DNA of 64,000 nucleotides from Candidatus Dormiibacterota bacterium (GCA_963718525.1 OY970355.1:640001-704000), one strand, 5' to 3'. Shown: positions 20,721 through 40,252, counted from the first letter of the stretch. The notes: generated from the letters alone by a model not told the origin. Translations and numbers: made by a program.

Positions 20721-21866
20721 GTGGTTCATAGAGCCCGACTCCTGGTCGTCGACGACACACCGGAGAACGCGCATCTCCTCGAAGCCCTGCTGTCCCCGCA
20801 GGGATATTCGGTAGCTCTAGCCTTTTCCGGCGTCGACGGTCTGGAGAAAGTCCGCACCGACCAACCTGACGTCGTCTTACTCGACATTCTGATGCCGGAT
20901 GTCACCGGCTACGAGGTGTGTCGCCGTATCCGGGCCAATCCCTTGACGCGCCTGCTCCCAGTGGTGATGTTGACCTCGAGTGGTGACCAGGACAAGGTCA
21001 ACTCGATCGAGGCTGGCGCCGACGACTTCATCGCTCGACCGTTCGATCCGCGGGAGCTGCTCAGCCGGGTACGGTCGCTCTTGCGCATCAAAGAATATCA
21101 GGACGCTGTCCAAGCTCAAGCCGCGCAACTCGCCGAGTGGAACCAGACCCTTGAGCAACACTTTCAGAGCCAGCTCGAACAGCTCGAGGAACTCGATCGA
21201 CTGCGCCGCGTCTTCTCGCCGCCCATACAACCGATTCATCCCGTCCGACATATCCCAGGCGCGCGTCAGGGCTCGGGACTAGATGGAAGATTCCATCGCG
21301 AAGGCGAATACTGGACCGCCGAGTACGAAGGGAGGGTCCTGCGCCTACGAGACGGCAAAGGGATGCGTGTCCTTGCTCGACTGCTCGCTGACCCGGGGCG
21401 TCCGTTTGCCGCGCTGGATCTCGAGCGGCTCGGCCTGCCAGCGGAGACGTCTACAGCCCGTGCGCTTGCGTCGAGCAATGCCGGCGAACTCCTCGATAAC
21501 GATGCGCGTCGCGCCTACCGGGTGCGTGTCGCGGAGTTGGGCGAGCAAATCGAGGCAGCGGAGACAGAAGGCAGGTCAGATGAAGCGGGTCTCCTTCGCG
21601 AGGAGATGGATTTCATCATCCGTGAGCTCAGCCGGGCTTTCGGTCTGGGGGGAAAGTCGCGCCGCGCGGGATCGATCGCCGAGCGGGCGCGCTTGAATGT
21701 GATGCGCGCGGTGAGGTCGGCGATGGACCGCATTTCCATTGCCGACGCTGCGCTGGGAGCTCATTTGAAGGCGACGATTCACACGGGCACTGTGTGCGTA
21801 TACACGCCCGATCCTCGGGCACTTATCGCCTGGGACGTAAAGAGCGGCGCCGGTCAACGCGGCTAA
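20721..21866 (+). CDS. Response regulator: REC + coiled coil + uncharacterised C-terminal (putative DNA-binding) domain
   Basis: LLVVDD, LLDILMP, GADDFI; C-terminal FHREGEYW...AERARLNV...IHTGTVCVY paralogous to 39677-40252; start GTG 20721 or TTG 20688. Confidence 0.85.
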   Translation: MVHRARLLVVDDTPENAHLLEALLSPQGYSVALAFSGVDGLEKVRTDQPDVVLLDILMPDVTGYEVCRRIRANPLTRLLPVVMLTSSGDQDKVNSIEAGADDFIARPFDPRELLSRVRSLLRIKEYQDAVQAQAAQLAEWNQTLEQHFQSQLEQLEELDRLRRVFSPPIQPIHPVRHIPGARQGSGLDGRFHREGEYWTAEYEGRVLRLRDGKGMRVLARLLADPGRPFAALDLERLGLPAETSTARALASSNAGELLDNDARRAYRVRVAELGEQIEAAETEGRSDEAGLLREEMDFIIRELSRAFGLGGKSRRAGSIAERARLNVMRAVRSAMDRISIADAALGAHLKATIHTGTVCVYTPDPRALIAWDVKSGAGQRG

Positions 21867-22013
21867 ACATCGTTCCCTGCAACGAACGTCGTGTGTCGGC
21901 GACGCCGATCAGAAGCGGCGACGGTCACCTGGGGGCCAGTCTCCTCGCCTGATGCTGGGCGTACGCGAGGGTAGCAACACGCGTTTGAAGATGGTCACTC
22001 GCGCATAAAGGCG

Positions 22014-24092
22014 TCAGCGCCGCATTGCCGTGTGCTCTGCAGTGGGCGGTCCATGAGCGATCTTCTCCGGGCGGTTGCAGTACGAAAGCACCTCAGCCGG
22101 AAACGTCTTGACGTCGATAGGTTTGACGATTACACCCGCAAAGCCAGTGCGCGCGAATCGCTCCCGATCGATCGCCATCACCGATGCTGTCACCGCAACC
22201 ACCGTCGTGCCGGCCGTGGCCGGATCGGCTTTCAGGTGTTCGAGCGCAGTGACGCCGCTCATGCGTGGAAGCTCGATGTCCATGAGAATGATGTCGGGAG
22301 TCGCCCTCACCGCGATTTCGAGTCCACGTTCGGCGTCGACTGCTTCGAGTGTGCGGAAGCCGTAATACCGTAGGAGGTCGCGGGTGAGCGTGAGGTTCTT
22401 CTCGTTGTCCTCGACAATCAGAACCAGCTGACCGGTCGCGCGGGTGGTCACGAGAGCGCTGGCTCCGCTGTCAGAAGCTCGCTCCCAGATGGCTGGATCT
22501 ACCGTTTCGGTGCCCTGATTACCGGTGCTGGATCGACGGGAGCGCGGCAACGTGAACGTAAAAGTGCTGCCCTGCCCGAGTGCGCTCTCCACAGTGAGCC
22601 GTCCGCCGTGCAGCTCGACGAAACGCCGTGACAATGGGAGTCCCAAACCCGTGCCTTCATGCGTGCGGGATCTGCCAACCTGTTCGAAGTCCTCGAATAT
22701 CCGTGCCTGATCCGCGAGTTCGATGCCGACGCCATTGTCGCGTACGGTGATCACAATCGCATCGCCGTAGTGCTGTGCGACGACTTCGATGTGCCCGCCT
22801 CGGTCGGTGAAGTTCAGCGCGTTCGAGAGCAGGTTGAAGAGCACCTGCTTCAAGAGTCGCTCGTCTGCCTCGATGAGGCCAACACTCGGGTCCACCTCGA
22901 GCCGCAGCGTGATGCCCTGCCTCGTGGCTCTCTCGCGCAGGAGCGCCATCGAACTCTGCAGCATGTCGTCCAAAGCGAAGGTGCTGACCTGCAGCTGCAT
23001 CCGCCCCGCCTCGATCTTGGACAGATCGAGGACGTCGTTGATGAGCGTCAACAGATGCCAACCCGACGTCTGGATGGCGGTCACATATTGCATCTGCTTC
23101 TCGTTGAGATCGCCGGCCATCTGCTCGTGCAGAATGTCGGAGAAGCCGATCACTGCATTGAGCGGCGTACGTAGCTCGTGCGACATATTGGCGAGGAACT
23201 CAGACTTGTGCCGGCTGGCCTCTTCAAGCGCCTGATACAGGCGCCCCAGCTCGTCGTTCATTCGATTCAGGTTTGCCGCCAGCTCCCCAAGCTCGTCGCG
23301 GTTAGGCACGTCGACGTGCCCCGAGAAGTCGCCGGAGGCGATCGCCGCCAGCTTCGTGTTCACCTTCCGGATTGGCCCGAGGAGCACTCTTGAGAGAACA
23401 ACAGCGAGGAGCGCAGCCAGCACAGCACTCGCGACCGCAACGCCGATGAAGAGTTGCTGCGAGCCGACAAACGAGGCCTGGTTCTGCGCCGGGAGTTCTC
23501 TCGACAGCGCTTGAGTATCGCTCACCAATGTGTCGGTGTGGGCAGTCAAGACGGCGCTCTCACTTATCTCGGAGGCATTGTTCTCGTAGGTTCCATTCAA
23601 ATCGCCGAAGACCAGGTTCGAGATCCCAAGCGAGATCGCACCGTATTCGGAGTTGATGTCGCCCAGGAGGCGCAGTTCGCTGGACGGGGGCGTGAAACCG
23701 AGCTCGCCTAGCTGTGTTTTCGGCTCCATTAACTCAAGTGTTGATGCGATCTCCCCGTCATCCTCGGCGAGTTGAGGGAGCGAAGCGTTCTCACTCGATG
23801 CTGCACAGTTTGCGTTGAGGAAACATGCAGTGATGAGCTCGCTCCGGCCCTGCAACTCGATGCCGAGCTGCACGCTGTCGACCTCGAGCTGCTGGTATGC
23901 GGCCAGGCGTTGTGGCAGTTGACTGAGCGTGTTGGCACGGCTGTTCGACTGACTCATGACGCCCAGACCCAAGGCGCCGACGGTGATGAGCAAGATGACA
24001 ATGACCGCAAAGGCAAACAGAAGTTTGCGTTGCACGGAGGTGGAAATGCGCGCGACGGCGCGTACCAGCACGTTGTCAGCGAGCGCAGTCAC
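22014..24092 (-). CDS. Membrane sensor hybrid histidine kinase (2TM-HAMP-HisKA-HATPase-REC)
   Basis: NRDELGELA HAMP; ANMSHELRTPLN; NLLSNA, DNGVG, GTGLGL; C-terminal VLIVED/ILMDI receiver. Confidence 0.94.
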   Translation of the reverse strand: MTALADNVLVRAVARISTSVQRKLLFAFAVIVILLITVGALGLGVMSQSNSRANTLSQLPQRLAAYQQLEVDSVQLGIELQGRSELITACFLNANCAASSENASLPQLAEDDGEIASTLELMEPKTQLGELGFTPPSSELRLLGDINSEYGAISLGISNLVFGDLNGTYENNASEISESAVLTAHTDTLVSDTQALSRELPAQNQASFVGSQQLFIGVAVASAVLAALLAVVLSRVLLGPIRKVNTKLAAIASGDFSGHVDVPNRDELGELAANLNRMNDELGRLYQALEEASRHKSEFLANMSHELRTPLNAVIGFSDILHEQMAGDLNEKQMQYVTAIQTSGWHLLTLINDVLDLSKIEAGRMQLQVSTFALDDMLQSSMALLRERATRQGITLRLEVDPSVGLIEADERLLKQVLFNLLSNALNFTDRGGHIEVVAQHYGDAIVITVRDNGVGIELADQARIFEDFEQVGRSRTHEGTGLGLPLSRRFVELHGGRLTVESALGQGSTFTFTLPRSRRSSTGNQGTETVDPAIWERASDSGASALVTTRATGQLVLIVEDNEKNLTLTRDLLRYYGFRTLEAVDAERGLEIAVRATPDIILMDIELPRMSGVTALEHLKADPATAGTTVVAVTASVMAIDRERFARTGFAGVIVKPIDVKTFPAEVLSYCNRPEKIAHGPPTAEHTAMRR

Positions 24093-24158
24093 AACTTCAC
24101 CGCCGGCATCCTCCCTCGGAGCGCCTCCGCTGTGGAGTTGGCAACAGGTTGGTCGCGC

Positions 24159-25991
24159 TTAGGACCAACGCCAGTTCTCCGGGTAGATTTGCAAAATCGG
24201 ATCCTGGGGGAATGTGCCTTGTAGGTCCTTATTGACCATGGAGAGCTGCCCGTACGCGACCGGAAGCCAGATGACCGGCAGTCGCTTCGCGATGTAGTCC
24301 TCGTACGTGTACAAGGCCGACACGTTGCTACTGAATTCGGTGGCCAGGATGTCGCTCTCGGCCTGCTGGTCGCAGTAACCGCCGCTGTCAGCTCCGGCAA
24401 CCATTTGGTTGTTGGCGGGTCCGGTGCACGCCCAGAGTTCATCGCCGGTTGGGTAGTAATCAGGTGCGTAGAACCAGCCAGCGCCCCAGAACTCCATGTC
24501 CCAGGTGCATGAGGCTCCCCCGCACGGGACCGCGCTCGCAATGACGGTGTTGAACGGCGCAGTGCTCAGTTTGATCTGAATGCCAGCCAGCGCGAAGTCC
24601 GTCTTGAACTGGGCCATCTCCTGGTCGAGAGCTGGCGTCCCGCTGATGTACTGAAGGCTGAACGAGGCCTTGGCTCCCATGGGGACGCCGGCGCCGCACT
24701 GGCCGGTGCCGGTGCCCGGACTGGTGCACGTGCTGACTCCCCCGGCGTTGACCGTCCACCCGTTCGCCTGGAGCAGCGACACGGCCTTGCTCGGGCTGTA
24801 TGGGTACGGGTTGCTCCGCTCGAACGAATCGACGAAGGGCGAGGACGGCTTGGTCGGGACCGGGCCGTAGGTGGGATAGCCGTAGCCGAAGAATGCCTTA
24901 CTGATGAGGGTGTTCTGGTCGACCAGATCCTGCATAGCTTGCCGGAAATACAACTGGCTGAAGATTGGCCCGCTGGTTAGGTTGCTGAAGTTCTCCGGAA
25001 TGTAGGTGATCTGCCAAGCCGTCCACGGTTGGAAGCTGTAGATGCCATTCAGGGAGGCTCTTTGCAGGACGTCGCCGTCGGGAATGTATCCGTAGTCGAT
25101 CGTGGTGTCGGCAACCGAGGTTGCCGCCTTGAGCTGGTTGAACTCGGCGGTGTCCTCGGTGAACGGCACCTCGTTGAACTGGGTCAGAGTCGGCTTGACC
25201 GGTCCGCCGTAGCCGGGGTTCGGTACCATCGAGACGTTGCCGGCGGTGTCCATCGACTTCAGTCTCCACGGGCCCGAGACCACCTGCCAGAGCGGGTTCG
25301 TGTCGTAGGTCGCGATGGACTTCAACTCAAAATCGAGGAGCTTGTAGACCGCCACCGCGCCGGCGGTGGTTTCGTCGTAGTTACCGACCGCGCCCGTCGG
25401 CAACTCCTTGTCCCAGACGTGCTGGGGGAGCGGGGTGATCTGGCTCAGCTCGTTGTATGTGAAGAAGTACGAGCCGTAGGCCTGGGTGAGGTTGAAGGTG
25501 ATCTGCAGCGGGTTAGCCGGGTTGATCGTCGTGCTGCTCACGTTGTCTGGATAGTCGCCCGGCGAGTAGCCCGCCCAGTTGTTCTTGTTGGCAGTGACCA
25601 GGTTCTGCCAGAACTGGATGTCACGCGCGGTGATCTGGGTCCCGTCCGACCACTTCCATCCCTTGAGTGTGACGGTGACCGTCTTGCCTTCCGAGGAGTA
25701 GATGGGCGAATCGGCAAGGCTGAGGCTAGTGTTCAACTTGACCTGGCCGTTGGTGCCGAACCAGTAGAGCGGCCGGTACATCAGGTACTGGAACTGGCTC
25801 AAGGTCCCGGTATTGAAGTCCTGGTAGCGCACAAGGGGGAAGATGTAGTTCGGTTGCGCCCCCGGTGTCTCCGCGAAGGTAGCCGTGGTCTTCTTGACCA
25901 TCGGACCCGTGGGGGCACCGCTGCCGCATGCCGCGAGCAGAATCGCCCCCAAAGCGACCACCGTGGGCCATCCCCTGGCCGTCTTGGCCAT
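24159..25991 (-). CDS. Family 5 (Opp/Dpp) ABC substrate-binding lipoprotein, with no adjacent permease
   Basis: Lipobox LLAAC; MYRPLY, WSDG..ITARD, VSGPW, FRQAMQ motifs. Confidence 0.9.
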   Translation of the reverse strand: MAKTARGWPTVVALGAILLAACGSGAPTGPMVKKTTATFAETPGAQPNYIFPLVRYQDFNTGTLSQFQYLMYRPLYWFGTNGQVKLNTSLSLADSPIYSSEGKTVTVTLKGWKWSDGTQITARDIQFWQNLVTANKNNWAGYSPGDYPDNVSSTTINPANPLQITFNLTQAYGSYFFTYNELSQITPLPQHVWDKELPTGAVGNYDETTAGAVAVYKLLDFELKSIATYDTNPLWQVVSGPWRLKSMDTAGNVSMVPNPGYGGPVKPTLTQFNEVPFTEDTAEFNQLKAATSVADTTIDYGYIPDGDVLQRASLNGIYSFQPWTAWQITYIPENFSNLTSGPIFSQLYFRQAMQDLVDQNTLISKAFFGYGYPTYGPVPTKPSSPFVDSFERSNPYPYSPSKAVSLLQANGWTVNAGGVSTCTSPGTGTGQCGAGVPMGAKASFSLQYISGTPALDQEMAQFKTDFALAGIQIKLSTAPFNTVIASAVPCGGASCTWDMEFWGAGWFYAPDYYPTGDELWACTGPANNQMVAGADSGGYCDQQAESDILATEFSSNVSALYTYEDYIAKRLPVIWLPVAYGQLSMVNKDLQGTFPQDPILQIYPENWRWS

Positions 25992-26166
25992 CGTCACGGA
26001 AGGAATATACCGAGACCCCAGACCTCCTGCAGCGCTCAATCATCAGCCATCACCTCACCTGTCACACCAGTGATGCGTTAGCACTAGGTCCGATTCCCGC
26101 GCCGTGCCCCGTACGGGCCGCTCCTTGCCTTGTGACGACGGAGCACGGCGCGGACCGCGATGGTCG

Positions 26167-27141
26167 CTAGCCCTCGATGTTGACCACGAAGCCGTGGAAG
26201 TAAGCGGTGGGGCTTTCGATGTACAAACCCACCACGACGTCACCGTTTGGGCTGATGTTCTTGATAAACGTTCCGTCGCCGGCACCCGTACCCGCATGCG
26301 GGTCGTCAAGGGGCGTGAACTGCCAGTCGCGCAGGAGCCACCCACGCGTCACGCCGCTACTGTTGATGATGGTGCCGTCGATGCTTCCGCTGTTCGAGAT
26401 CGCGCTCGGCGTCGTGCCCTGTCCGGCGCCGCTGCCGGCTCCCGGAGCGTTGATGGTCGTGAAATTCCCTGACGTGTCAACGAAGCCGTAGCTGACGTTG
26501 TGATTGTCGATATACTCTCCGACGATTACTCCCGCGTCGTTCTCACCGGTTAGGATCGTGCCCTGGCCGCTGCCGACGCCGGCGTGAGGCGCATTCACCG
26601 TAGTGAAGACGCCACCGTTGTCCACGAAGCCGTGGTTGACGTTGTGGCTGTCGAGGTACTGGCCGACAACCACGCCCTCGTCGTTGATACCCTCAGGAAT
26701 CGTCCCGGCGCCGCCCGAGCCCACCTTCGGGTCGTTGATGACGCTGAAGGCGCCTCCGGGCCTTCGCACGAAGCCGTGCCAGATCCCGTTGGCGTCGATG
26801 TATGCGCCGGCGACGGTGTCCGCGTTGTTGATGCCGGACGGGAACGTAACCCCGGACGCCCCCGGGTAGTCGAACTTGACGACACATCCTCCGGACGTGA
26901 CGTAGCCATGATAGCCACCCCCGGCGTCCAGATACGTACCCGTCATGACCCCGGCGTCATTAACGCCGTTGACGTAGCTCCCGAACTTTCCGACGTTAAC
27001 GGTGAGGTATTGCAGCAACCTATGTGCTGCCTGAGCCGGCAACGACGACGAGGCCGTGAGGGCGACTGCAGCACTCGCTGCCGCTGCCGCTACAACAAAC
27101 GTCTTACGCTTGCCGTTGTTGACATCAGTCTGACCTGACAT
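26167..27141 (-). CDS. Secreted HAF/DUF3466-like repeat protein
   Basis: Signal peptide; about six repeats of G(I/V)N(D/N).G..(V/A)G.Y.D....HGFV; likely start ATG 27141. Confidence 0.82.
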   Translation of the reverse strand: MSGQTDVNNGKRKTFVVAAAAASAAVALTASSSLPAQAAHRLLQYLTVNVGKFGSYVNGVNDAGVMTGTYLDAGGGYHGYVTSGGCVVKFDYPGASGVTFPSGINNADTVAGAYIDANGIWHGFVRRPGGAFSVINDPKVGSGGAGTIPEGINDEGVVVGQYLDSHNVNHGFVDNGGVFTTVNAPHAGVGSGQGTILTGENDAGVIVGEYIDNHNVSYGFVDTSGNFTTINAPGAGSGAGQGTTPSAISNSGSIDGTIINSSGVTRGWLLRDWQFTPLDDPHAGTGAGDGTFIKNISPNGDVVVGLYIESPTAYFHGFVVNIEG

Positions 27142-27225
27142 GACCACACCTCGCTGCGGGCTGGTCGTTAGTGTGACGGCCGAGTTGCCCGCGTCCACTT
27201 GGTCAGGCGGTCACCCGAGGTGCAC

Positions 27226-27250
27226 GCATGTTCATACGCATTGAACATGC
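27226..27250. promoter_or_regulatory. Palindromic operator GCATGTTCA-tacgcat-TGAACATGC
   Basis: Perfect 9-bp inverted repeat upstream of the HAF-repeat gene; second copy at 37591. Confidence 0.72.
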
Positions 27251-27491
27251 CAATACCGGCCCTGCAGTCACCGGCCTGCAACGCTAGTTCGGGGCCTGTT
27301 GCGGACGTCCGAGCGCCCTAGACGCGAGGGGGTTCACCGCCATTGAGCCCTTAGAATTCGCGTGGCCGCCAGCAGCCCGGTTAGAGCAGCCCCGCACTTG
27401 TGCGCAGGCCGCCATGTGACGACAAGATCGGTCACGAGCCTGTGGCGGATCCAGGATTCTAGGCTTACGACTCCCTGGACGCGGGAAGAGC

Positions 27492-27504
27492 TAATGCCAA
27501 ATTA
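27492..27504 (+). repeat. Junction motif copy TAATGCCAAATTA (exact)
   Basis: Separates the RR/HK/SBP/HAF module from the sugar operon; ACCGACTAATC follows (TAAT at +98). Confidence 0.8.
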
Positions 27505-27651
27505 CACGTTCCGATGTGCGCCTCCTGAATTCGCGGTGAGACCTTCGACGTCAAGATCTGACCCAGCTTATCGGCTGCTCCGCACCGACTAATCGGGGTA
27601 GTGGGAGCTACCGCCGTCGCTAGACATAGCAACGAGACGATTTCGCCCGCG

Positions 27652-28509
27652 CTAGTCCCGATTCATCGCTTCCACGCTCGCAACCTCAGAGATGACCCCT
27701 TCCAACACATGGCGACTCTGCGCCGCCATCGCCCCTGGGTCTCGATCGGTCTCATCCAGCTCGACGGTCCACCACGGTAGATCGTTCACTGCGGCCAATT
27801 CCCGCACGACCCCGCGGATGTCAACAATGCCCTCGCCGAGGGGCAGGAATCGGCCGTCCGCGTAATCCTTGAAGTGCACATACTCGACGCGGTCACGATA
27901 GTCACGAACGATTACAGCAGCATCGCCGCCGCCCGCCACGAGGTGCGCCGTGTCGGGGCACAGGGAGATCTCGGTCAGGTCGAGAATGCGAGACAGCTGC
28001 TCGGGGCTTTCGCTAATCGTGCCCAGATGCGGATGGTACGCCGCGCGCAATCCGTGGGTCTCGGCGAGCCTGACGACCCGGTCGAGTGACTTCGCGAGCG
28101 CCTCGTAGTCAGCGTCGCGTGGGCCCTCGGCGCGAATGGCACCCCCGCCGACGACAAAGAACATTGCGCCAAATCGTTGCGCCGATTTCATCGCCACCTC
28201 GAGACGCGCGAATTCGTCGTGCGCTACATCAGCGTAGATGAAGCTCGCTCCGCTGTAGACGGCGACCAACACCAACCCCGTATCTCGCATGAGCGTGTCA
28301 AAGCGCGCCGGCTCATTTGCGTAGCGTTGCAAATTGCCGTCGAAGATTTCGAAGCCCGCGTAGCCAGCGCGGGCAATGTCGCGCAGCGCCTGCTCATCAG
28401 AGCCATGAGTCAGGTAGAAGAGGTCGCGCGGGGACGTGACCCCGCTGGGGTGCCCGACGACGCCACCCCAGGTGTTGGTTTGGTAAGCGAGGCGCGGGGT
28501 GCTGATCAG
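27652..28509 (-). CDS. IolE-like sugar phosphate isomerase/dehydratase (xylose-isomerase-like TIM barrel), probable CTG start
   Basis: AYQTNTWGG, GYAGFEIF, YHPHLGT, CPDTAH, YVHFKD, FLPLGEG, VELD; frame stays open 59 codons upstream of the track's TTG. Confidence 0.85.
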   Translation of the reverse strand: MISTPRLAYQTNTWGGVVGHPSGVTSPRDLFYLTHGSDEQALRDIARAGYAGFEIFDGNLQRYANEPARFDTLMRDTGLVLVAVYSGASFIYADVAHDEFARLEVAMKSAQRFGAMFFVVGGGAIRAEGPRDADYEALAKSLDRVVRLAETHGLRAAYHPHLGTISESPEQLSRILDLTEISLCPDTAHLVAGGGDAAVIVRDYRDRVEYVHFKDYADGRFLPLGEGIVDIRGVVRELAAVNDLPWWTVELDETDRDPGAMAAQSRHVLEGVISEVASVEAMNRD

Positions 28510-28513
28510 GTTG

Positions 28514-29962
28514 CTATTCCTCAGCCGTCGCCAGGAGTGCGGCCGACTCGCGCAGTGCCTGCGGACGCCGGTTGTCGATCCATTTCATCGCGACGAAACC
28601 GATGACCATCCAGGCGATGAAGATGTATGGGACGATGTTGAACGGGAAGGCAGGAATCGGCCAGAACGTAACCCATAGCACCGGGAGCAACAGAAGGGTG
28701 CCGAGGATTGGAATCACCCCATGGCGCCAAATGTTGAACTCGTCCCGCCTCATGCGGCGGAAGAAGACGACGAGCGCGATGTTGGCAATTCCATACATGA
28801 CGATGAGGCCGACCGTAATTACTGTGCCGAGGAAGCCGAAGACTAGTCCGCCACCGAGCCAGATGCCGACTATGGCCATGAGCCCGAGGCTCAGAATGGT
28901 TTGCACGTGTATGGCCGTTGAAGGTGTGCGGTGTACTGGATGAACTCGGGTCAACGGAGCCGGCAACGCGCCGCCGCGAGCCATGGTGTAGGCAACCCTC
29001 GAGCCGGCGTTGGTGGCGGCAATGCCAATCGCGAGAGCGCCGTTGAGCAGGGCGATGAAGATCAGAAACCACACCGGTCCCCAGAGCTTATGCGCCAGAA
29101 CGTAGTACGGATTCGCATTGGTCGCGAACGCAGCGAGGTTTGATGTTCCCCATCCGATCGCACTCGCATAGGACATGAAGATGAAGAACACCCCAACCAT
29201 GACAACCGAGAGCATGATGGCCTTGGAGAGAAACTCCTTTGGTCTGCGTGTCTCCTCGGCCAAAGGAGCGGCCGACTCGAACCCGCTGAGGGCGGTGATG
29301 GAGAAGGCGACGCCGTAGAGGATGCCCGAGATGCCCGTCGGGCTCGTCCCGGGATTCAGCGGCGCGGTGGCACTGGAGCCTGGGCCGGGATGGATAAGGA
29401 AGGTGATCCCGAGCGCGAACACGAGGAGGAGCTCAAGGGATCCCATGATGACTGCGGTACGCGTGCTGATGCGTATGCCCCGGTAGGTAAGCCCCCAAAC
29501 CAGGAGGATGAACGCCCCCCCAAAGACCCACCAGGGGATATTGATGCCGGTGTTGGTCTGCAGGATGTCCGCCATGAGGAACCCAAGGAAGCCAAGCACG
29601 GCGGGTGGCGTCAGCGGGTCATAAGCGAAGTAACTCCACGCGGTGAGGAATCCCCAGCGGGGTCCGAGCCCTTGGCCCACGAACGTGAAATAGCCACCGC
29701 TCGACGGGATGTAGCGAGAGAATTCGGCAACCGTGTTCGCGATGACAAGTCCGACCAAGACAGCCAGAGCGAGCGATATCGGCATGGCTGCGCCGGCGTT
29801 GAGGGCGATGAGCGGAAAGAGAAACACGACGCTGACTGACGGACCCATGTGGGTGATGGCCTGGAACAGCACATCCACCAGTCCGAGTGCTCCGCGATGC
29901 AGCTGTGTAGCTTCGGCGCGAACGGTCTGCACGCCCGTGACAGGTGCCACAGTCTCACTCAT
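28514..29962 (-). CDS. APC-family amino acid/amine permease
   Basis: About 12 TM helices; PSSGGYF and SGFESAAPLAEET motifs; ATGA overlap with the upstream gene. Confidence 0.92.
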   Translation of the reverse strand: MSETVAPVTGVQTVRAEATQLHRGALGLVDVLFQAITHMGPSVSVVFLFPLIALNAGAAMPISLALAVLVGLVIANTVAEFSRYIPSSGGYFTFVGQGLGPRWGFLTAWSYFAYDPLTPPAVLGFLGFLMADILQTNTGINIPWWVFGGAFILLVWGLTYRGIRISTRTAVIMGSLELLLVFALGITFLIHPGPGSSATAPLNPGTSPTGISGILYGVAFSITALSGFESAAPLAEETRRPKEFLSKAIMLSVVMVGVFFIFMSYASAIGWGTSNLAAFATNANPYYVLAHKLWGPVWFLIFIALLNGALAIGIAATNAGSRVAYTMARGGALPAPLTRVHPVHRTPSTAIHVQTILSLGLMAIVGIWLGGGLVFGFLGTVITVGLIVMYGIANIALVVFFRRMRRDEFNIWRHGVIPILGTLLLLPVLWVTFWPIPAFPFNIVPYIFIAWMVIGFVAMKWIDNRRPQALRESAALLATAEE

Positions 29963-31260: not shown

Positions 31261-31288
31261 GGCGCCAATCCTCCGGTTACAGCATTCA

Positions 31289-32386: not shown

Positions 32387-33342
32387 CAGGGGTGAGGGCG
32401 AGGCTCGGTAAACAAACAGTCTTTCAGAAACACCACGGCTTGCGACAACCCCTCATCTGGAGAGGCGAGGATGTCTTCGTGCTCGATGCTGATGACGTCG
32501 TCATAGCCCACCTCGCGGAGGGCGCCGAAGAACCGCTTCCACAACAAGCTGTCGTGACCGTGACCAACGGTCCGAAAAGACCACGAACGCGCCTCGATCT
32601 TCTCCAGAGGGGTCGTGTCGAGGACGCCATTGCGACGGACAGCCTCGGAATTGAAGTCGACGTCCTTGGCGTGAACGTGGTACGTGGCATCGCCAAGCGT
32701 GCGCACGGCCACGACTGCGTCGATGCCCTGCCAGAAGAGATGACTCGGATCGAGGTTGGCGCCGATTTCGCCACCCACCGCTTCCCGAAGCCGGAGCAGG
32801 GTCGCGGGGTTGTAGACGACAAAGCCGGGGTGCATTTCAAAGCAGAGCTTGCGAACCCCGTGGTTGCGAGCAAACGTCGCTTGCTCCTTCCAATAGGGGA
32901 TGACCACGTCCTCCCACTGCCAGTTGAGGATGGTCAGATAGTCGGTGGGCCACGCACAGGTCACCCAGTTCGGTTGCTTTGACGCGGGCGAGTCTCCTGG
33001 GCACCCCGAAAAGAGCGTCAGCCTTTCCACATCAAGGCGCTCGGCGAGCAAGACTGCCTGCTCGAAAACGCGATGGTGTTCTCGGGCAACGTCGCGATTT
33101 GGATGCAGAGGGTTGCCATGACACGCGAGGGCGCTGATGGTCAGACCACGCCTGTCCAGCGCATGTCGATACTCCTTGAGCTTCGTCGCATCGGCCAGCA
33201 ATTCATCGGCAGGGCAATGTGTGTTCCCGGGATAGTTGCCGGCGCCGAGCTCGACGGCGGTCAACCCGAGGGCGGCGATCCGGTCGAGGGCATCCTCAAA
33301 GCGCAGATGCTGGAGTACGACGGTGAAGACTCCGAGCTGCAT
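32374..33342 (-). CDS. Sugar phosphate isomerase/epimerase (AP-endonuclease-2/xylose isomerase TIM barrel)
   Basis: CHGNPLHP, FSGCPG, EMHPG, DPSHLFWQG, HVHAKD, SIEHED. Confidence 0.92.
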   Translation of the reverse strand: MQLGVFTVVLQHLRFEDALDRIAALGLTAVELGAGNYPGNTHCPADELLADATKLKEYRHALDRRGLTISALACHGNPLHPNRDVAREHHRVFEQAVLLAERLDVERLTLFSGCPGDSPASKQPNWVTCAWPTDYLTILNWQWEDVVIPYWKEQATFARNHGVRKLCFEMHPGFVVYNPATLLRLREAVGGEIGANLDPSHLFWQGIDAVVAVRTLGDATYHVHAKDVDFNSEAVRRNGVLDTTPLEKIEARSWSFRTVGHGHDSLLWKRFFGALREVGYDDVISIEHEDILASPDEGLSQAVVFLKDCLFTEPRPHPWWTS

Positions 33343-33347
33343 GATGT

Positions 33348-34556
33348 CTAGTTCTGAACGCCCAGCGGCCACAATTGGTAGAGCTCACCCATGACCAGGG
33401 CGGCCGAACCAATCACACCGGCGTCATCACCAAGTTGGGACCGACAGATGACGATGTCACGAGTTGCGAGCGGAAGCGAGCGTCGATAAATAGCTTCGCG
33501 GATTGCTGCAAGCAGAAGGTCCCCGATTTTCGCCACACCGCCTCCGATGACGATCAGTTCGGGGTTGTAAAAGTTCACCAGGCTGGCGAGCACGCGACCA
33601 ATCGCTCGTCCCGATTGGCGAACAATCTCGGCGACCACGGGATCGCCTTCGGCGAGTGCGACTCCGAGGTCGACCGCGGTCACCGCCAACTCCTTCGAGC
33701 GCCGCACCAAGATTTCGCTGAGCTGCTCGTTGGCCAGCCGCTCCGCTGTCTTCCCCAGCGCCCATCCGCCCGCGATCAACTCGAGGCAGCCGAGATTCCC
33801 GCACCGGCACACGGTGGGGTCGTCACCCACCGCGATGTGGCCGATGTCACCGGCTGAGCCTTGGGCGCCTCGATAGATCTTCCCGTGGCTGACGATGCCG
33901 CATCCAATCCCACTACCGAGCTTGACGAAGATGAAGTTCTGCGCATCGCGACCCGCGCCCGCCCAGCGCTCGCCCGTGATCATCATGTTCACGTCGTTAT
34001 CGACAAACACCGGACAGCCGAACTCCCCTTCGAGGTACTCGCGTATCGGGAAAAGATGCCAGCCGGGCATGATCGGAGGAGAGACCGGCCGACCGGTCGC
34101 GAACTCGACAGGGCCGGGGATGCCCATGCCAATGCCCTTCAGCGATTGGCGAGTGAGCCCTGACTCATCCAAGGCGCGTTCCACGTCAGCTCGTGCAGCG
34201 CTCATGACCGCAGCCGGTCCGTCGCGTACGTCGATCTCGCGCGACAGGTGGCAAATCGGCTCGGCGTTCAAATTGGTGACCGCCACGTCAAGGCTCGTCG
34301 CGCCGAGGTCGATGCCGATCAGGTAGCCGCTCTCTTTCGCGAAGCGGACGCGGCTCGGGGGCCTCCCGCCACTCGATGCGCCGGTGCCGACCTCTTCGAG
34401 GAAGTGCTGATCGAGGAGCGACTTCAGCGTGGCCGAGACTTTGTTGCGGCCTAACCCGGAACGCTGAGCAAGTTCCAGCCGAGAGATTTCTCCAGCCTCC
34501 CGCACGATCGCAACGAGGCGAGCCTCCTCTCCGGATTCGATCTGGGGCTCATACAT
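33348..34556 (-). CDS. ROK family transcriptional regulator
   Basis: HTH (SRLELA..SGL), GGRP, GIDLG, DNDVN, GDIGH, CRCGNLGCLE; start ATG 34556 (the track's TTG 34595 is the -35 box). Confidence 0.93.
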   Translation of the reverse strand: MYEPQIESGEEARLVAIVREAGEISRLELAQRSGLGRNKVSATLKSLLDQHFLEEVGTGASSGGRPPSRVRFAKESGYLIGIDLGATSLDVAVTNLNAEPICHLSREIDVRDGPAAVMSAARADVERALDESGLTRQSLKGIGMGIPGPVEFATGRPVSPPIMPGWHLFPIREYLEGEFGCPVFVDNDVNMMITGERWAGAGRDAQNFIFVKLGSGIGCGIVSHGKIYRGAQGSAGDIGHIAVGDDPTVCRCGNLGCLELIAGGWALGKTAERLANEQLSEILVRRSKELAVTAVDLGVALAEGDPVVAEIVRQSGRAIGRVLASLVNFYNPELIVIGGGVAKIGDLLLAAIREAIYRRSLPLATRDIVICRSQLGDDAGVIGSAALVMGELYQLWPLGVQN

Positions 34557-34566
34557 TCGGGTCGGG

Positions 34567-34595
34567 ATTCTAAGGCGGAAGTTGCACGATGTCAA
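34567..34595 (-). promoter_or_regulatory. Sigma70-type promoter TTGACA-N17-TAGAAT for the ROK operon
   Basis: Minus strand TTGACA tcgtgcaacttccgcct TAGAAT; ATG 10 nt after the -10 box. Confidence 0.8.
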
Positions 34596-35110
34596 TCAAA
34601 AGTCTGTCGCGACTGTGCAGAAGTCGGGAGTTCGTGGGCTGAAGGGTGGCGTCGCCGAATTGACCTCGGGCGTGAGGCTCCCCGTAGGTCGGCGCCGATC
34701 GGCCCGACCCGGCCCCCGAATGGCGTCCTGAGGCGGCGCCTCGTATGCGCACCTTCGGATGAAGGTGCGATCCGTCCCTGGCGCTGGGTAGGTGCCGCGC
34801 GGGCCACCCGCCAGGGCGCCGCCTCGATGGTGTCGAGGAGCGTCGTCTTGAGGGGAGGGGCCAGGCAAACCTCGCGGGCGACTAGGTGGCGGTCGTCGAC
34901 GCCGATTCAGGGGGTTATATCGGCCTTGCCCGGCCCCACTCTCGACGATACAGACCTCCGGCGATCCTGGCAGTGCGCCCGGTCACAAGCGGGCATTGAC
35001 TTCCAGCAGCGATCGGCCATCGACTAATCCAAAGCGCGGCAACCATTCACTGGGTGTTAACTGCAGCGGATCGCACCCGAGGGAGCATCGGTCGTATTGA
35101 CATTTGCACC

Positions 35111-37564
35111 TCAGTGATGGAGCGGTATCAGCGAGACCGTGTCGTCCAGGTTGACGACGTATGCAGTGCCGTCGCCCTCATCGACGGCGACGTTCCACGG
35201 CGAGCGTCCAACCGCAACCTGTGGCGGTGTTTGGTCACAGCCGCTGTGGTCCCCAGCGTTACAGGTCGACCCGTTGATCACCGTAACGCTCGTGTCCTGC
35301 ACATTGGTGACGTAGATCGTGTCTGTGGCGGCATCGAGCGCGATACCGATCGCGCCGTATCTGGCCGCGACGATTGGCGGCGTCTGGCCGCAGCCCGAGG
35401 TGTCGGATCCATTGCACGTGGCGCCGTTGATGATCGAGATCGTGCCCTGGAGGTCGCCCTGCTCGTGGTTCGCGACGTAGACGGTGTCGGTTTTCGGGTC
35501 AATCGCAAGCTCGCGGGGGTCCTCGCCAACGGTGATCGTCGCTGGTGTCTGGCTGCAGCCCGATGTGTCTGCTGCATCACAGGTCTTGCCGTTGATCACA
35601 TACACCGTGTCGGCGGTCTGGTTCCCGTAGTCGACGTTGGTGACGTAGAGAGTGTTGGTTCCCTGGCCGATGGCGACAGAGAGATCTGAGCCATTGACAG
35701 CGTCCGACTGTCCGACGTGCAGGGTCGCCGGCGTCTGGCCACAGCCAGTGGCATGTTCTGCGTCGCAGGTGGCTCCATTGAACACCGCAATGAGATTTGG
35801 CCCGCTGCTGGTGAGGACGGTGACGTACACGGTGTCAGTCGCAGGATCGACCGCGATACCATCGGGGTTTCCACCCGGGACGTTTAGCGTTTCGACCCGT
35901 GTGCAGCCCGCTTGGTTGGCGGCGTTGCACGAGTCAGCGTTGATCACCGAAACAGCGCCGCCCGAACCCGGGCCGGTGCCGTGGTCGGCGACAAAGACGG
36001 TGTGCGTTCGCTGATCGACAGCCACAGCGACCGGATTCGGGCCTACCGCTGCAGTCGACGGTGGCGTTGCGCACCCAGCGAGCCGATGGGCGTTGCAGGC
36101 GCGGGTGTCGATCAGCGCCACGGCGTTCGCACCGGAGGTCACGTAGGCGGTGTGGACCGTCGCGTCGACGGCGAGCCCGAAACCGTGCGGTATCAACACC
36201 GCGGGTGCCGGTCGGCGACATCCGCTCGTATTGTCGGCGTCGCACCGTGAGGCGTCGATGACCGAGACGTCGTTGCTCACCTGGTTCGCTGCGTACAGCG
36301 TCTGGGTCAGCATATTCACGGCTACGAACTCCGGATCCTCACCGGTGTGGATGGTCGGTGGGTTGAGGGTTGCACACGCTGCCAGCTGACGGCCGTTGCA
36401 CACCTGCGTGTCGATCACCGAGAGGTCATCGTCTCCCTGGTTGACCACGTAGACCGTGTGGAGCGGGACATCGACGGTCAGGAAGAAGGCGACTTCGAAA
36501 GGCTGAGGAGGGGCCACGACCACAATGCCGCGCTTTTGGAACGCACACTCCGCCAGGTCACTCGCGTTACACGAACGCCCGTCGAACGCGGACATGGTCC
36601 CGCCCCCCGATTGGGTCGAATAGTCGGCCGTGTAGATCGTGTCGTTCGCGGCATCCACGGTGACGCCACTGACCGCCGGAGCTCCGCTGAGCATTCCGAC
36701 CGTGCCGCAGCCCGTCTGCACGGTCGCATTGCACGTGTTCGTGTCGAACGCAGAGACTCCGCCGTTTTCAGCCACGTAGGCTGTGTGCGTTGACTGGTTA
36801 ACTGCGATGTCGCCTGGGCCGCCTCCGACCGTTACCGTCGGTGGAGTCTGGCGCGAACACCCCGTCAGGTCGGCCGCGTTACACGTCAACGAGTTGATCA
36901 TCGACACGATGTCGCCACCGAGGCTAGTGACGTACACGGTGTGATTCGAGGAATCGGCGAAGATCCCGAACGGGAATGACCCAACCCGCACCCTCGCCGG
37001 TGTCTGGTCACACCCCCATGTCACGCGTCCGTTGCAGATCGCGCCATTGAACACAGACACCGCGTTGGTGGTCCCGCTATTGCCATTGACGGTGACGTAC
37101 ACGGTGTCGGTGACTTGATCAACGGTGATCGTCGACGGCATGTTCCCAACCCTGATCGTGGGCCATGGCCCCTCGCACCGCGAGACGTTCTGCGCCTGGC
37201 AGTGGCGTCCGTCGATCACCGACACTGTGTCGCCGCCAGGGCTCGTGCCGTTTGCATTGCTGCCGTTCGCTGAATAGATCGTGTCAGTAGCGGGGTCGAT
37301 CGCCAGCGCGGATGGGCCTACCTTCACAGGCGCCGACCCCACCAAAGCGGACCCAAAGCTGCCACTTGGGTTCGTGGACGTCGCGCCCCGTACTGCCCCC
37401 GCCGCGCTGGATCGTTCGGCGTGGGTCACGGCGCGTGACGTCGCGCCTGCTTGAATCGACCCTCCGGCCGCCGTGAACAGGACCGCGATCACAGCGCCTA
37501 CCAGGGAACGGTGCCTCTCTAGACGCATGATCCACCTCCTTGCTGCTCCCATACGACCCCGCAA
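35111..37564 (-). CDS. Secreted YncE/YVTN-type beta-propeller repeat protein with Cys-pair loops
   Basis: Signal peptide; many repeats of T.YV.N....VSVI...(T/R)C(N/D)xxxxxGC...P.T..VG..P..(I/V)A(V/I)D. Confidence 0.85.
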   Translation of the reverse strand: MRGRMGAARRWIMRLERHRSLVGAVIAVLFTAAGGSIQAGATSRAVTHAERSSAAGAVRGATSTNPSGSFGSALVGSAPVKVGPSALAIDPATDTIYSANGSNANGTSPGGDTVSVIDGRHCQAQNVSRCEGPWPTIRVGNMPSTITVDQVTDTVYVTVNGNSGTTNAVSVFNGAICNGRVTWGCDQTPARVRVGSFPFGIFADSSNHTVYVTSLGGDIVSMINSLTCNAADLTGCSRQTPPTVTVGGGPGDIAVNQSTHTAYVAENGGVSAFDTNTCNATVQTGCGTVGMLSGAPAVSGVTVDAANDTIYTADYSTQSGGGTMSAFDGRSCNASDLAECAFQKRGIVVVAPPQPFEVAFFLTVDVPLHTVYVVNQGDDDLSVIDTQVCNGRQLAACATLNPPTIHTGEDPEFVAVNMLTQTLYAANQVSNDVSVIDASRCDADNTSGCRRPAPAVLIPHGFGLAVDATVHTAYVTSGANAVALIDTRACNAHRLAGCATPPSTAAVGPNPVAVAVDQRTHTVFVADHGTGPGSGGAVSVINADSCNAANQAGCTRVETLNVPGGNPDGIAVDPATDTVYVTVLTSSGPNLIAVFNGATCDAEHATGCGQTPATLHVGQSDAVNGSDLSVAIGQGTNTLYVTNVDYGNQTADTVYVINGKTCDAADTSGCSQTPATITVGEDPRELAIDPKTDTVYVANHEQGDLQGTISIINGATCNGSDTSGCGQTPPIVAARYGAIGIALDAATDTIYVTNVQDTSVTVINGSTCNAGDHSGCDQTPPQVAVGRSPWNVAVDEGDGTAYVVNLDDTVSLIPLHH

Positions 37565-37590
37565 ATAAGGCGTTCACTCCGCGGGTACGA

Positions 37591-37611
37591 ATGTTCAGAG
37601 GCATTGAACAT
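37591..37611. promoter_or_regulatory. Palindromic operator ATGTTCA-gaggcat-TGAACAT
   Basis: In the divergent intergenic region; matches the 27228-27248 palindrome, including GCAT in the spacer. Confidence 0.72.
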
Positions 37612-37656
37612 CTCCGACGGGGGGTCGATACTTGCCGCAGGAAGCGTGTTGCAGCA

Positions 37657-40252
37657 ATGAACCTGCCGACCCAGCAGACCCCGTTTATTGGGCGGGTGCT
37701 CGAACTCCGTTCAGCTGGCGCCCTGCTCCGCGCTCACCGGCTGCTGACGCTCGTTGGCGCCGGCGGCTCAGGAAAGACACGGCTCGCGGTGCAACTCGCC
37801 GCTGGGGCAGGCGAGCGGTTCCCTGACGGTATCTTCTGGGTACCGCTAGCATCCGTTCGCGACCCCGACCTGGTAGAGCAGACCATCGCCCGATCCGTCG
37901 GCGCCAACATTGAGCTCGTTGAGCACCTGACCGGTAAGCGCGTCCTCTTGGTCCTGGACAATATGGAGCAGGTCGTGGCGGCGGCGGACATGCTGGGGTT
38001 GCTCCTCGGGGCGTGTCCCAGCCTCCATGCGCTCGTGACGAGCCGAGAGCCGCTGCGCATCGCCCCCGAGCAGCGCTTCACCGTGGATACGCTCAGCACC
38101 CCTGACGCGGTTGCGCTCTTCAACGAGCGGGCCCGCGCAGTGGATTCGACGTTCGTGGAGGACGCGACGGTGGAGGCCATCTGCAGGCGGCTCGACTGCC
38201 TGCCACTTGCCGTCGAGCTCGCAGCCACTCGGGTCAACGTGCTGACACCCGACGTCCTCCTCGCGCAACTCGAGCGCCGCCTGCCGCTCCTCACCGGCGG
38301 ACGGCGTGACATGCCCGAGCGCCATCAGACGCTGAGAGCGACGATCGAATGGAGCGAGGATCTGCTGCAAGCAAGTGAACGGTCCATCTTCCATCGTCTC
38401 GCGATCTTCCCGGCGAGCTTCGATCTTTGGGCTGCGGAAGCGGTGTGTATGACAAACCTCGCGGCCCTCTCCTCGCTCGTCGACAAATGCCTGGTGACTC
38501 GCACAAGTGGCAATCGCTTCGCGCTGCTGGAGACAGTCCACGAGTTCGCAGACGAGCACTTGACCCCGAGCGAGCGAGACGAACTCGCCTGCCGGCATGC
38601 GGAGTACTTCGTTGTGGCCGCCGAGGTTGCGTCAGGTGCCCAGAGTTGGCCCACCAACCCTGAGACTTTTGGGAAGCTGGACGACGACATCGCGAATCTC
38701 CGCGCAGCGCTCGCGTGGACGCGGTCGAAAGGCCTGAACGAGCTGACGCTTCGGCTTGGGATCGCGCTCTCCAGGTACTGGATCGATCGGGGTCATCGCC
38801 ACGATGCCTGCACATGGCTTGAGAGCGCACCGCTCACTGACGCCGCAGTTCCTACACCGCTTCGCGCAGCATCCCTGGAGGCAGCTGGGCTGATCGACTA
38901 CTTCGTGGCCGCCGCTTACGACGAGGCGGAGCAGTACTACAGGCAGAGCCTGGCGCTCTATCGCCAGCTCGGAAACGAGCAACAGGTTGCGTTCCTGCTC
39001 AACCGTGTTGGTCGCATCGCGATGTTGCGTGCAGATCTCGTCAAAGCCAACAGCTTTCATCTCGACGCGCTGGCGTTGTACGACGAGATGGCCGATAACG
39101 CCGGGCGTGCAGCGACGCTGCACCTGCTCGCTGAAGCCGCGTCCAGGCAGCGCCGATTTGAAGATGCCGAGCGGCTCTTTACAGAGGCGATTCGCTTGGC
39201 GCGTACGGCGTTTCCGGGACAGGTTCGGCACTCGCTGCACAGCCTCGGTGATCTCGAACTCGACCGCGGCAACTATGGATGTGCGTTCGGGTACTACCAG
39301 GAGAGCCTGGAGCTGACCAGCAGGAGCGAGCGCCGCAGCCTCATCCTGCGCGTCGCGGGGTTCAGCAGCGCCCTCGCTGGTCTGGGTGCGTACCCTCTCG
39401 CAGCGCGGCTCTGGGGTGCCGTCGACGCCAATGAGCGCACGCTAGGTTTTCGCATGCTCTCCGACGAGCGAAAACGCTATGAACGATGGGCAGACACCAC
39501 ACGGAGTCGAACTCGGTGAACAGGCGTTCCGCGCCGCCTTTACGGAGGGCGCGGGCCTTCAGATTGAGGAGGCGCTCAGCGAGGCGGCGGGGTACACCGC
39601 CGCGGCGCTAATACAACCCGGTCGCCCTGCGCCACCCGTCGCCGGCGGTTTGGCCCTTTCAACTGAAGCCGGAAGGTTCGAGCAAGAGGGAGAATACTGG
39701 ACGATCGAGTACAACTCGAGGATCCTGCGGGTTCGGGATAGTAAGGGAGTTCGTGTGCTCGCCTATCTCCTCGCCGACCCGGAACGTCCGTATACCGCTC
39801 TGGACCTCGAGCGGCTGGGCGCACCCGGAGGCGAGGTAATCGCTCGAGCGGTTGCCTCGGGCGACGTGGGCGAGCTCCTCGATGACGAGGCGCGGAGAGC
39901 ATACCGGGCTAGAGTTGCGGAGCTGCATGAGGCGATCGAGGTAGCTGAAATCTGGGGTAAGCCAGAGGAGAGCGGCCTCCTGCGCGAAGAGATGGACTTC
40001 ATCACCCACGAGCTGAGCAGAGCACTCGGGCTGGGAGGGCGACCGCGCCACGCGGGATCGATTGCTGAGCGGGCTCGGTTGAATGTCACGCGGGCGGTGA
40101 GGTCGGCGATGCTGCGCATCTCCTCAGTCGACGCCGCCCTCGGGGGTCATCTCAACGCGACCGTCCACACGGGAACCGTTTGCGTATATCGCCCAGACCC
40201 CCGAGCAACCGTTGTTTGGCATGTTGCGATCGGCGTCGCTCAACGCCTCTAA
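37657..40252 (+). pseudogene. STAND-type ATPase (NB-ARC-like)-TPR regulator with C-terminal domain, frameshifted near 39505
   Basis: NLP...FIGR, GAGGSGKTRLA, LVLDNME, TSRE, LDCLPLAVELAA, TPR helices; continuation VELGEQAF...FEQEGEYW... lies in another frame (ORF 39479-40252). Confidence 0.85.

Follow-up and report, generated by a model that had tools for sequence, protein, structure and literature searches.

Do two regulators of different build, each associated with a secreted-protein gene that is preceded by the same palindrome, use a common output domain to recognize that palindrome? The question is raised by a 64,000-nucleotide (nt) stretch of DNA from Candidatus Dormiibacterota bacterium (GCA_963718525.1, OY970355.1:640001-704000), referred to here in its whole length as the window and numbered from its first letter. 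An initial annotation had described two gene modules in it, A and B. Each was said to comprise a regulator with an uncharacterized C-terminal domain and the palindrome ATGTTCA-N7-TGAACAT upstream of a gene for a secreted repeat protein, and the domain was proposed to be a DNA-binding output serving a phosphorelay in one module and a STAND sensor in the other. Following up these claims computationally, we conclude that the shared domain is probably a divergent OmpR-fold output domain that binds a GTTCA-N7-TGAAC operator. The observation was confirmed, with the corrections given below, and all computational checks suggested in the initial annotation turned out in its favor. DNA binding, dimerization, and the sign of regulation are what we infer from three kinds of observation, namely, the sequences themselves, a fold prediction, and the co-occurrence of domain and site.

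Two regulators share a C-terminal domain and a palindrome

The module A regulator (20721-21866, plus strand) is a 381-amino-acid (aa) response regulator with an N-terminal receiver (REC) domain (PF00072, 96.3 bits; curated cutoff, 30.2). A long signaling helix and a disordered linker follow, and the protein ends in ∼190 aa that match no Pfam or NCBIfam family (copy A of the shared domain; 21285-21863, plus strand; predicted OmpR-fold winged helix with a helical-hairpin insert). The module B regulator gene (37657-40252, plus strand; 864 aa if read through) encodes a probable STAND NTPase with TPR repeats followed by copy B of the domain (39662-40249, plus strand; protein P0006, whose sequence was modeled). 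The two copies show 67% identity across 212 residues (E = 1e-86), bearing out the earlier description of them as highly similar, and no Pfam or NCBIfam model matches the domain they share. The notion of two inputs feeding one output also holds: module A combines REC, a hybrid kinase, and a solute-binding protein, and module B a probable STAND NTPase and TPR repeats.

The palindrome is exact before both repeat-protein genes, as annotated, at 27228-27248 (site A, ATGTTCATACGCATTGAACAT, spacer TACGCAT) and at 37591-37611 (site B, ATGTTCAGAGGCATTGAACAT, spacer GAGGCAT). The HAF-like repeat gene of module A has its likely ATG (27141, preceded by GAGGTG) 86 nt downstream of site A. Site B falls in the 128 nt that separate two divergent genes, at a distance of 62 nt from the ATG of the YVTN-repeat propeller gene (37528, preceded by GGAGG) and 45 nt from that of the STAND gene (37657). 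With up to two mismatches allowed, these were the only two matches in the window (shuffle mean, 0.03; none of 100 shuffles reached two); with up to one mismatch allowed, they were the only two places matched in the whole 3,336,189-base genome.

The 10-base core of the palindrome, GTTCA-N7-TGAAC, has four copies in this genome. Other spacings give 1 to 5 copies in it, so four is not above background, and the signal lies in the location of the core sites rather than in their number. Likewise, core-pattern counts in the phylum sample run from 0 to 9 per genome (a tally that includes the unpublished genome G038), so that presence of the core alone means nothing. Three of the four sites adjoin the three close paralogues of the domain (70 to 71% identical to the module B copy). 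By our estimate, ∼2% of the genome is no more than 6 kb from a domain gene, and three of four random sites would fall there with P ∼4e-5. The third of these sites is found just after the stop codon of a third regulator, an intact 876-aa STAND-TPR-domain protein (1838364-1840994; 71% identical in the domain), and 100 nt upstream of another gene for a secreted YVTN propeller. The fourth site (2244229) stands 106 nt ahead of a gene whose 564-aa product has a signal-like N terminus. Before the site, ∼40 nt show homology to the 3′ end of a regulator gene of this kind (56 of 73 bases, E = 4e-11); here the regulator seems to have been lost to an insertion that spared the operator and the target gene. 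Two transposase-like open reading frames, recognized by translation, stand beside this remnant (G000:C1:2241429-2244240). All four core sites are ∼60 to 110 nt upstream of genes for proteins with signal-like N termini.

The core recurs at related loci

The co-occurrence of palindrome and domain that the initial annotation expected elsewhere was observed in close relatives. We retrieved 16 related loci, five from GTDB genomes (all Dormibacteria-type metagenome-assembled genomes) and eleven from metagenomes. The core was present in 15 of these 16 loci, as 20 sites with 15 distinct 41-mers in 156,309 bases. Control patterns in the same bases gave no matches at N4, N5, N8, N9, or N10 and one at N6, and neither the everted nor the reversed pattern occurred. 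The sole miss, L038, is a module A orthologue whose contig ends inside the HAF-like gene, so the expected place of the site is not covered. At L036, the exact core precedes another gene, and a one-mismatch version precedes the propeller gene. All the loci are kin and several are near-identical (L010/L040/L043, L034/L035/L044, and L009/L038), for which reason the count of 15 of 16 overstates their independence.

The most informative pair was module A and its orthologue L009: the half-sites are identical, while five of the seven spacer bases differ and the distal flank is unalignable. Orthologous sites for site B were found at L012, L034, L035, and L037. The place of the site relative to the regulator gene varies by module, being 5.4 kb away and convergent, divergent, or directly downstream; the site follows the target gene, not the position of the regulator. 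L034 (1174-8875), L035, and L037 carry module B next to the third module, in the order propeller, site, regulator B, regulator 3, site, propeller; 1.16 Mb separate the same two modules in the genome of the window.

The shared domain is predicted to be an OmpR-type winged helix

The initial annotation had suggested modeling the domain as a possible winged helix-turn-helix, and the model points to one of the OmpR/PhoB type. An AlphaFold (AF2) model of copy B, built from a 33-sequence alignment, reached a mean predicted local distance difference test (pLDDT) score of 86.7. Its first half comprises three strands, a helix (residues 28 to 38), a short strand and a helix (46 to 50), and a weakly predicted stretch; its second half comprises a helical hairpin (75 to 97 and 101 to 121), a GLGGR linker, two helices (134 to 156 and 158 to 167), and a β-hairpin (173 to 189). 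Approximate positions of these parts in the window, taken from the model, are 39833-40060 for the insert, 40061-40129 for the putative recognition helix, and 40178-40228 for the β-hairpin wing (all plus strand). The same fold recurs in the model of the full-length REC protein, after a 55-residue signaling helix (residues 110 to 165) and the disordered linker.

Foldseek returned no match to the domain model at E ≤ 0.001; among its weak top rows, DNA-binding domains of the OmpR, KdpE, PhoB, GlnR, and AfsR types recur, and EmbR is also present. In a search against representatives that was independent of Foldseek, 7 of the 50 top entries were the DNA-binding domains of BaeR, GlnR, CssR, AdeR, CpxR, VicR, and ArlR; these spanned model residues 2 to ∼180 with 84 to 93 residues aligned, nearly the whole target domain, and the remaining rows were generic helical hairpins aligned on model residues 58 to 132. 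A second structural comparison placed OmpR/PhoB/ToxR/CadC-type DNA-binding domains in 30 of the 50 top PDB entries (Z, 6.7 to 8.2; root mean square deviation, 2.7 to 3.8 Å), with 84 to 96 of 93 to 108 domain residues aligned (for full-length chains, the DNA-binding part) and model residues 2 to 177-189 covered. The model contains the elements that define an OmpR-type fold, an N-terminal β-sheet, a three-helix winged helix-turn-helix, and a C-terminal β-hairpin. It would be, in our reading, a complete OmpR-type winged helix with a helical hairpin of ∼75 aa inserted between helix 2 and the recognition helix. The putative recognition helix, ERARLNV[T/M/V]RAVRSA, is near-identical across the four regulator groups that share the core, which fits their common palindrome.

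The domain belongs to a large and unannotated family

At E ≤ 0.001, the domain had 10,339 relatives counted as representatives of clusters at 50% identity, of which 1,014 remained at E ≤ 1e-30. It is nearly always C-terminal. In 40 sampled relatives it follows AAA_16 or STAND with TPR (∼1,100 aa), REC, PadR, cyclase with NB-ARC, or AhpC/redoxin; the same sample includes an AAA_16-TPR protein and an alpha/beta hydrolase to which the domain is N-terminal. FHA is present in 2 of 33 aligned family members. These architectures are those expected of an output domain. The source names of 10 relatives read hypothetical, TPR, and, in one case, "serine/threonine protein kinase," and the ESM Atlas holds only "hypothetical protein" clusters for the domain. 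No description of it was found in the literature searched, within the terms used.

The genome of the window encodes five copies: the two in the window, the third close copy, and two distant ones at 42 to 44% identity. Elsewhere the distribution is patchy. In the class sample, 6 of 61 genomes carry the domain (own genome included, as well as G102 and G118, both flagged unpublished); a genome of the same genus gave no match with this domain query. In the phylum sample, a profile found the domain in 3 of 81 genomes, with 29 candidates scored per genome. One of the distant copies in the window's own genome (44%, 958 aa; G000:C1:599234-603294, L006/L050) is followed by a gene for a secreted HAF-like repeat protein, the product of which has a weak DUF3466 match (E = 0.0065). 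The 236-nt gap before that gene holds no GTTCA-N7-TGAAC, only GC-rich inverted repeats.

Two observations concern distant members. In L047 (G115), a 273-aa member (6912-7733) with an N-terminal membrane helix would represent the domain in membrane-anchored form; it adjoins a gene for a 795-aa protein that, by translation, resembles a heavy-metal P-type ATPase. In L052 (G058), GCTGTTCACCGTTGTGACGCCGTCCTTCACGCC (5026-5090) stands just after the stop codon of a stand-alone member and 66 nt before the next gene, and contains TTCAC twice, 21 bp apart. This repeat may be a hint that GTTCA-like half-sites are read by distant members as well; for the G058 relative, no orthologue turned up in four related genomes with which to compare footprints.

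The proposed operator is often double

Aligning the site regions, oriented on the target gene, revealed the composite GTTCA-N7-TGAAC-N4-GTxCA-N7-TGAxC-GCCTGA, that is, two 17-bp palindromes offset by 21 bp, or two helical turns. Modules A and B have a perfect distal palindrome and a degenerate proximal one. The latter reads GGTCA-N7-TGCAC in module A (27209-27225, 4 nt from site A on the gene side) and GTTCA-N7-GGTAC in module B (37572-37588, toward the propeller gene and 4 nt from the core of site B). In the alignment of site regions, the degenerate palindrome of module A falls opposite the perfect proximal one of class-2 sites. In the third-module type it is the proximal palindrome that is perfect; of the distal one the right half alone remains, since the rest overlaps the last codons of the regulator. 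The joining sequence TGAAC-ATTC-GTTCA, part of the composite, occurs 13 times in the related loci. By eye, the proximal half-site of module B is followed by a 17-nt gap and TATGGG, a spacing that module A does not share; it would put site B at −35, by analogy with PhoB- or SARP-type activation. A further core site with one mismatch (GTTCACCGCCATTGAGC, 27332-27348) shares the intergenic region of site A, ∼100 nt distal to it. Since 1.4 such one-mismatch sites are expected by chance in the whole window, this copy may mean nothing.

Weighing the evidence

Several results weigh against the domain being an OmpR-fold protein that recognizes this palindrome. As to the fold, Z scores of 7 to 8 lie in the range that the tool itself calls middling, so the structural match means that the domain works like an OmpR-type domain rather than that homology is proven. 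Trans_reg_C (PF00486) matched none of the genome's five domain genes at E ≤ 10 (it has 21 matches in that genome), none of 33 family members at E ≤ 10, and neither window copy at E ≤ 0.01; a family profile searched against PDB sequences found nothing below E = 0.2. An hhalign comparison with 16 OmpR-type domains of the same genome did align the N-terminal 53 residues in the expected register (E = 0.0034), while the C-terminal half was not significant (E = 0.11) and aligned to the wrong segment. Because sequence methods do not confirm homology, we file the domain as working like an OmpR/PhoB effector domain, not as a member of the Pfam family. As to recognition, the ERAR of the putative recognition helix does not vary although the family is very diverse, which is unusual for residues that confer specificity. 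Canonical members of the OmpR/PhoB group bind direct repeats, whereas the site here is inverted. PhoP, KdpE, and RstA are described as binding direct or tandem repeats (PMC4832192, PMC3264566, PMC4117788). As to the site, the related loci are kin and largely syntenic, so its conservation partly reflects shared descent; class-2 loci conserve the whole intergenic region and not the site alone. Three relatives at 42 to 46% identity (G110, G114, and G115) have neither a core site nor a secreted-repeat neighbor, and the link between palindrome and secreted-repeat genes holds only for the close subfamily (at least ∼59% identity to the query, mostly at least 65%). Finally, a scan detected no sigma-70-like promoter near site A or site B, and promoter and terminator scans alike gave no sites around the two palindromes.

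That the domain contacts the site is itself a deduction, and some of these facts could be read differently. If another transcription factor bound the palindrome, the shared domain might do something else, for example, contact RNA polymerase or a secreted-protein pathway; the family-wide invariance of ERAR would suit a conserved protein or RNA polymerase contact, and three sites have no adjacent intact regulator (the fourth genomic site, site a of L011, and site b of L012). Set against this are the DNA-binding type of the predicted fold and the fact that every genomic core site adjoins a domain gene or the remnant of one. No other regulator gene is common to module A, module B, and the third module, and the three paralogues could serve orphan sites in trans. 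On balance we consider a separate factor unlikely. Less probable still, indeed very much so, is that the repeat acts in RNA, forming a hairpin within the 5′ leader of target transcripts or at the 3′ end of regulator transcripts and serving as an attenuator, processing, or stability signal. The class-2 element does start at the regulator stop codon and is therefore probably transcribed, a hairpin is present in minimum-energy folds, and the symmetric change from TGTTCA/TGAACA to CGTTCA/TGAACG preserves pairing. Symmetric changes, however, are equally expected for a dimeric DNA-binding protein. The folding energies are ordinary (z, −0.4 to −0.9), the stem has just 5 to 7 AU-rich pairs with no T-run, the half-site sequence and not merely its pairing is conserved, and site B sits between divergent start codons just 128 nt apart.

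Could the palindrome instead be a relic of module duplication, promoter DNA copied along with the regulator and propeller genes and devoid of specific function? The modules are paralogous, two of them are side by side in three of the related loci, and the site regions of every module can be aligned to a single homologous composite. Yet the regulators have diverged to 67 to 71% protein identity, and flanks and spacers have diverged as well, with 5 + 5 (up to 7 + 7) bases still exact; control patterns are absent from the same 156 kb, and perfect two-fold symmetry is not what neutral decay would leave. We give this possibility hardly any weight. Recognition of the palindrome by an OmpR-fold shared domain remains the explanation that we favor.

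Comparison with known regulators

The domain resembles the OmpR/PhoB domain (PF00486; PhoB, GlnR, SaeR, and BaeR) in its predicted N-terminal β-sheet, three helices, and C-terminal β-hairpin wing, and module A resembles OmpR/PhoB regulators in carrying it C-terminal to REC. It differs in that a helical hairpin of ∼75 aa replaces the short loop between helices 2 and 3, in going undetected by the Pfam model, and in being fused also to STAND, FHA, PadR, and other modules. Orthologues carry the JGI label "DNA-binding response OmpR family regulator," which may rest on the REC part alone.

Like AfsR and other SARP regulators, module B combines a predicted OmpR-type module with a probable STAND NTPase (NOD) and TPR. 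AfsR is described as having an N-terminal DNA-binding domain and then BTAD, as binding direct repeats that overlap −35 as a side-by-side dimer, and as being inhibited in its DNA-binding part by NOD and TPR until ATP binds (PMC10936776). By analogy, such inhibition offers a plausible model for module B. Unlike AfsR, the domain here is C-terminal, its helical element is inserted inside the domain, and the site is palindromic. BTAD (PF03704) had no match in the regulator proteins of the window at E ≤ 0.01 or in 40 sampled relatives at E ≤ 1e-5. The output domain of MalT is a LuxR/GerE-type helix-turn-helix, and no Pfam match to that type was found in the STAND-TPR or domain proteins of module B. 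In its order of NTPase, sensor repeats, and C-terminal DNA-binding output, module B is otherwise like the MalT-type STAND factors (PMC4381067; a STAND protein with a TPR sensor, PMC6468293), and multimerization dependent on an inducer would be expected on that analogy. ToxR and CadC DNA-binding domains were also among the structural matches (Z, 6.7 to 7.3). In these proteins the winged helix is N-terminal and the membrane helix comes after it, the reverse of the order in the L047 member.

A model for the two modules

On the reading that we favor, the domain would serve REC, STAND/AAA_16-TPR, FHA, PadR, cyclase, and other modules as an output that is usually C-terminal and rarely N-terminal. 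Its close subfamily would recognize GTTCA-N7-TGAAC, probably as a two-fold symmetric dimer, at a site that is often part of a double operator ∼60 to 110 nt upstream of genes for secreted YVTN propellers or HAF-like proteins. A two-fold dimer fits an inverted repeat. A parallel dimer is also suggested by the REC domain and signaling helix of module A (20721-21200), which are 73 to 77% identical to those in REC-adenylate cyclases of ∼585 aa; judged by these sequences, the output domain of module A seems to have been swapped onto a cyclase-type receiver in place of the cyclase.

In module A, the solute-binding protein and hybrid kinase may phosphorylate the REC domain, and the regulator may then act at site A on an operon of the HAF-like gene, the binding protein, and the kinase. 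Acting there, it would exert feedback on its own sensor. In module B, the STAND NTPase with its TPR sensor would switch on by nucleotide exchange and oligomerization, and the regulator would act at site B on both the divergent propeller gene and its own promoter. This STAND version could follow the logic of either AfsR or MalT, with the output released or assembled on nucleotide exchange. As for the sign of regulation, we lean slightly toward activation over repression.

A bolder and more doubtful generalization extends this model to a whole superfamily of more than 10,000 clusters at 50% identity, unnamed and without a Pfam or NCBIfam model. In it, the hairpin that replaces the loop between helices 2 and 3 might allow a two-fold dimer to read inverted repeats as the output of REC, STAND, FHA, PadR, cyclase, and membrane-anchored sensors, with the near-invariant ERAR..NVTRA helix reading a GTTCA-like half-site across much of the family. 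If the domain does bind the site, thousands of soil and sediment proteins now called "hypothetical" or "TPR repeat," many of them large STAND/AAA_16-TPR proteins (∼1,100 aa) or response regulators without a known output, would become recognizable as transcription factors. For an uncultivated lineage, an operator would be known together with its regulon, made up of secreted proteins of the YVTN-propeller and HAF-like kinds, and nature would provide a case of an OmpR-fold domain rebuilt for palindromes. A single genome also offers an example of one output domain exchanged between phosphorelay and STAND sensing.

Genes of module A

Site A is followed on the minus strand by three genes that converge on the regulator gene: the HAF-like repeat gene (26167-27141), the first downstream of the site; a gene for an extracellular solute-binding protein of family 5 (24159-26039; PF00496, 126.5 bits); and a gene for a hybrid histidine kinase with Pfam matches to HAMP, HisKA, HATPase_c, and REC (22014-24092). 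The kinase gene is likely the last in an operon that starts at site A, and the kinase probably has the solute-binding protein as its ligand-binding partner. At L009, the orthologous locus, the solute-binding protein gene is conserved and the gene order around the kinase is the same.

Translation of the HAF-like gene gives a hydrophobic, signal-like N terminus and GxND.GVxVG.Y.D....HGFV repeats that were seen by eye. The protein (P0004) matched no Pfam and no NCBIfam family at E ≤ 0.1. No curated model of the HAF extracellular repeat matched, and the repeat call made in the initial annotation did not find support from either database. The claim that both targets are secreted β-propellers stands for the YVTN protein of module B, and the HAF-like protein is at most a putative propeller. 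Upstream of the module A regulator, 16938-20234 encodes a 1,098-aa protein with glucose/sorbosone dehydrogenase, PKD, and Ig-like domains; a YVTN propeller gene occupies its place in L009.

Genes of module B and the broken reading frame

The target of site B (35111-37528, minus strand) encodes a secreted multi-YVTN β-propeller repeat protein of 805 aa from its ATG. The YVTN call of the initial annotation was upheld by TIGR02276 (28.6 bits; cutoff, 27.85), and the protein also matched a YncE-like model (3.9e-20, below the equivalog cutoff) and a lactonase propeller (8.5e-9). In the divergent regulator, the STAND part fell under the curated cutoffs of NB-ARC (22.6 bits; cutoff, 23.5) and NACHT (22.4 bits; cutoff, 26.7), TPR_12 exceeded its cutoff (43.7 bits), and a Walker A motif, GAGGSGKT, is visible. 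A paralogue, L051, exceeds the NACHT cutoff at 30.7 bits.

The annotated fusion of the STAND-TPR protein to the domain was found intact in orthologues and interrupted in the window. There, the STAND-TPR frame stops at 39519 and the domain continues in another frame (39479-40252); alignment to three orthologues traced the break to one extra base at 39510. This letter is absent from contigs of three other DNA runs (X2, X3, and X4) that are 95 to 99% alike. In L034, L035, and L037 the STAND-TPR-domain open reading frame is unbroken and measures 886 to 907 aa from the first start codon of the open frame. Given these unbroken frames and the absence of the letter from the other contigs, the fusion is taken as the native state, and the break in the window is either an assembly error or a strain-specific lesion. 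In L012, a further module B orthologue, the TPR part and the domain are separated by an in-frame stop (4858-4860), so that the regulator is broken in two genomes by different lesions, a 1-nt insertion and an in-frame stop. Contigs of an RNA-library run (X14) cover parts of both genes and the intergenic region; at 90 to 95% alike they come from a relative, and since they cannot show starts, strand, or transcription, we drew no conclusion from them.

Between the two modules (27652-34595), a minus-strand cluster encodes two xylose-isomerase-like TIM-barrel proteins, an amino-acid permease, a DegT/DnrJ-type aminotransferase, a GFO/IDH/MocA oxidoreductase, and a ROK-family regulator. The gene content resembles that of a sugar or aminocyclitol pathway, with no apparent connection to the regulators and sites described here.

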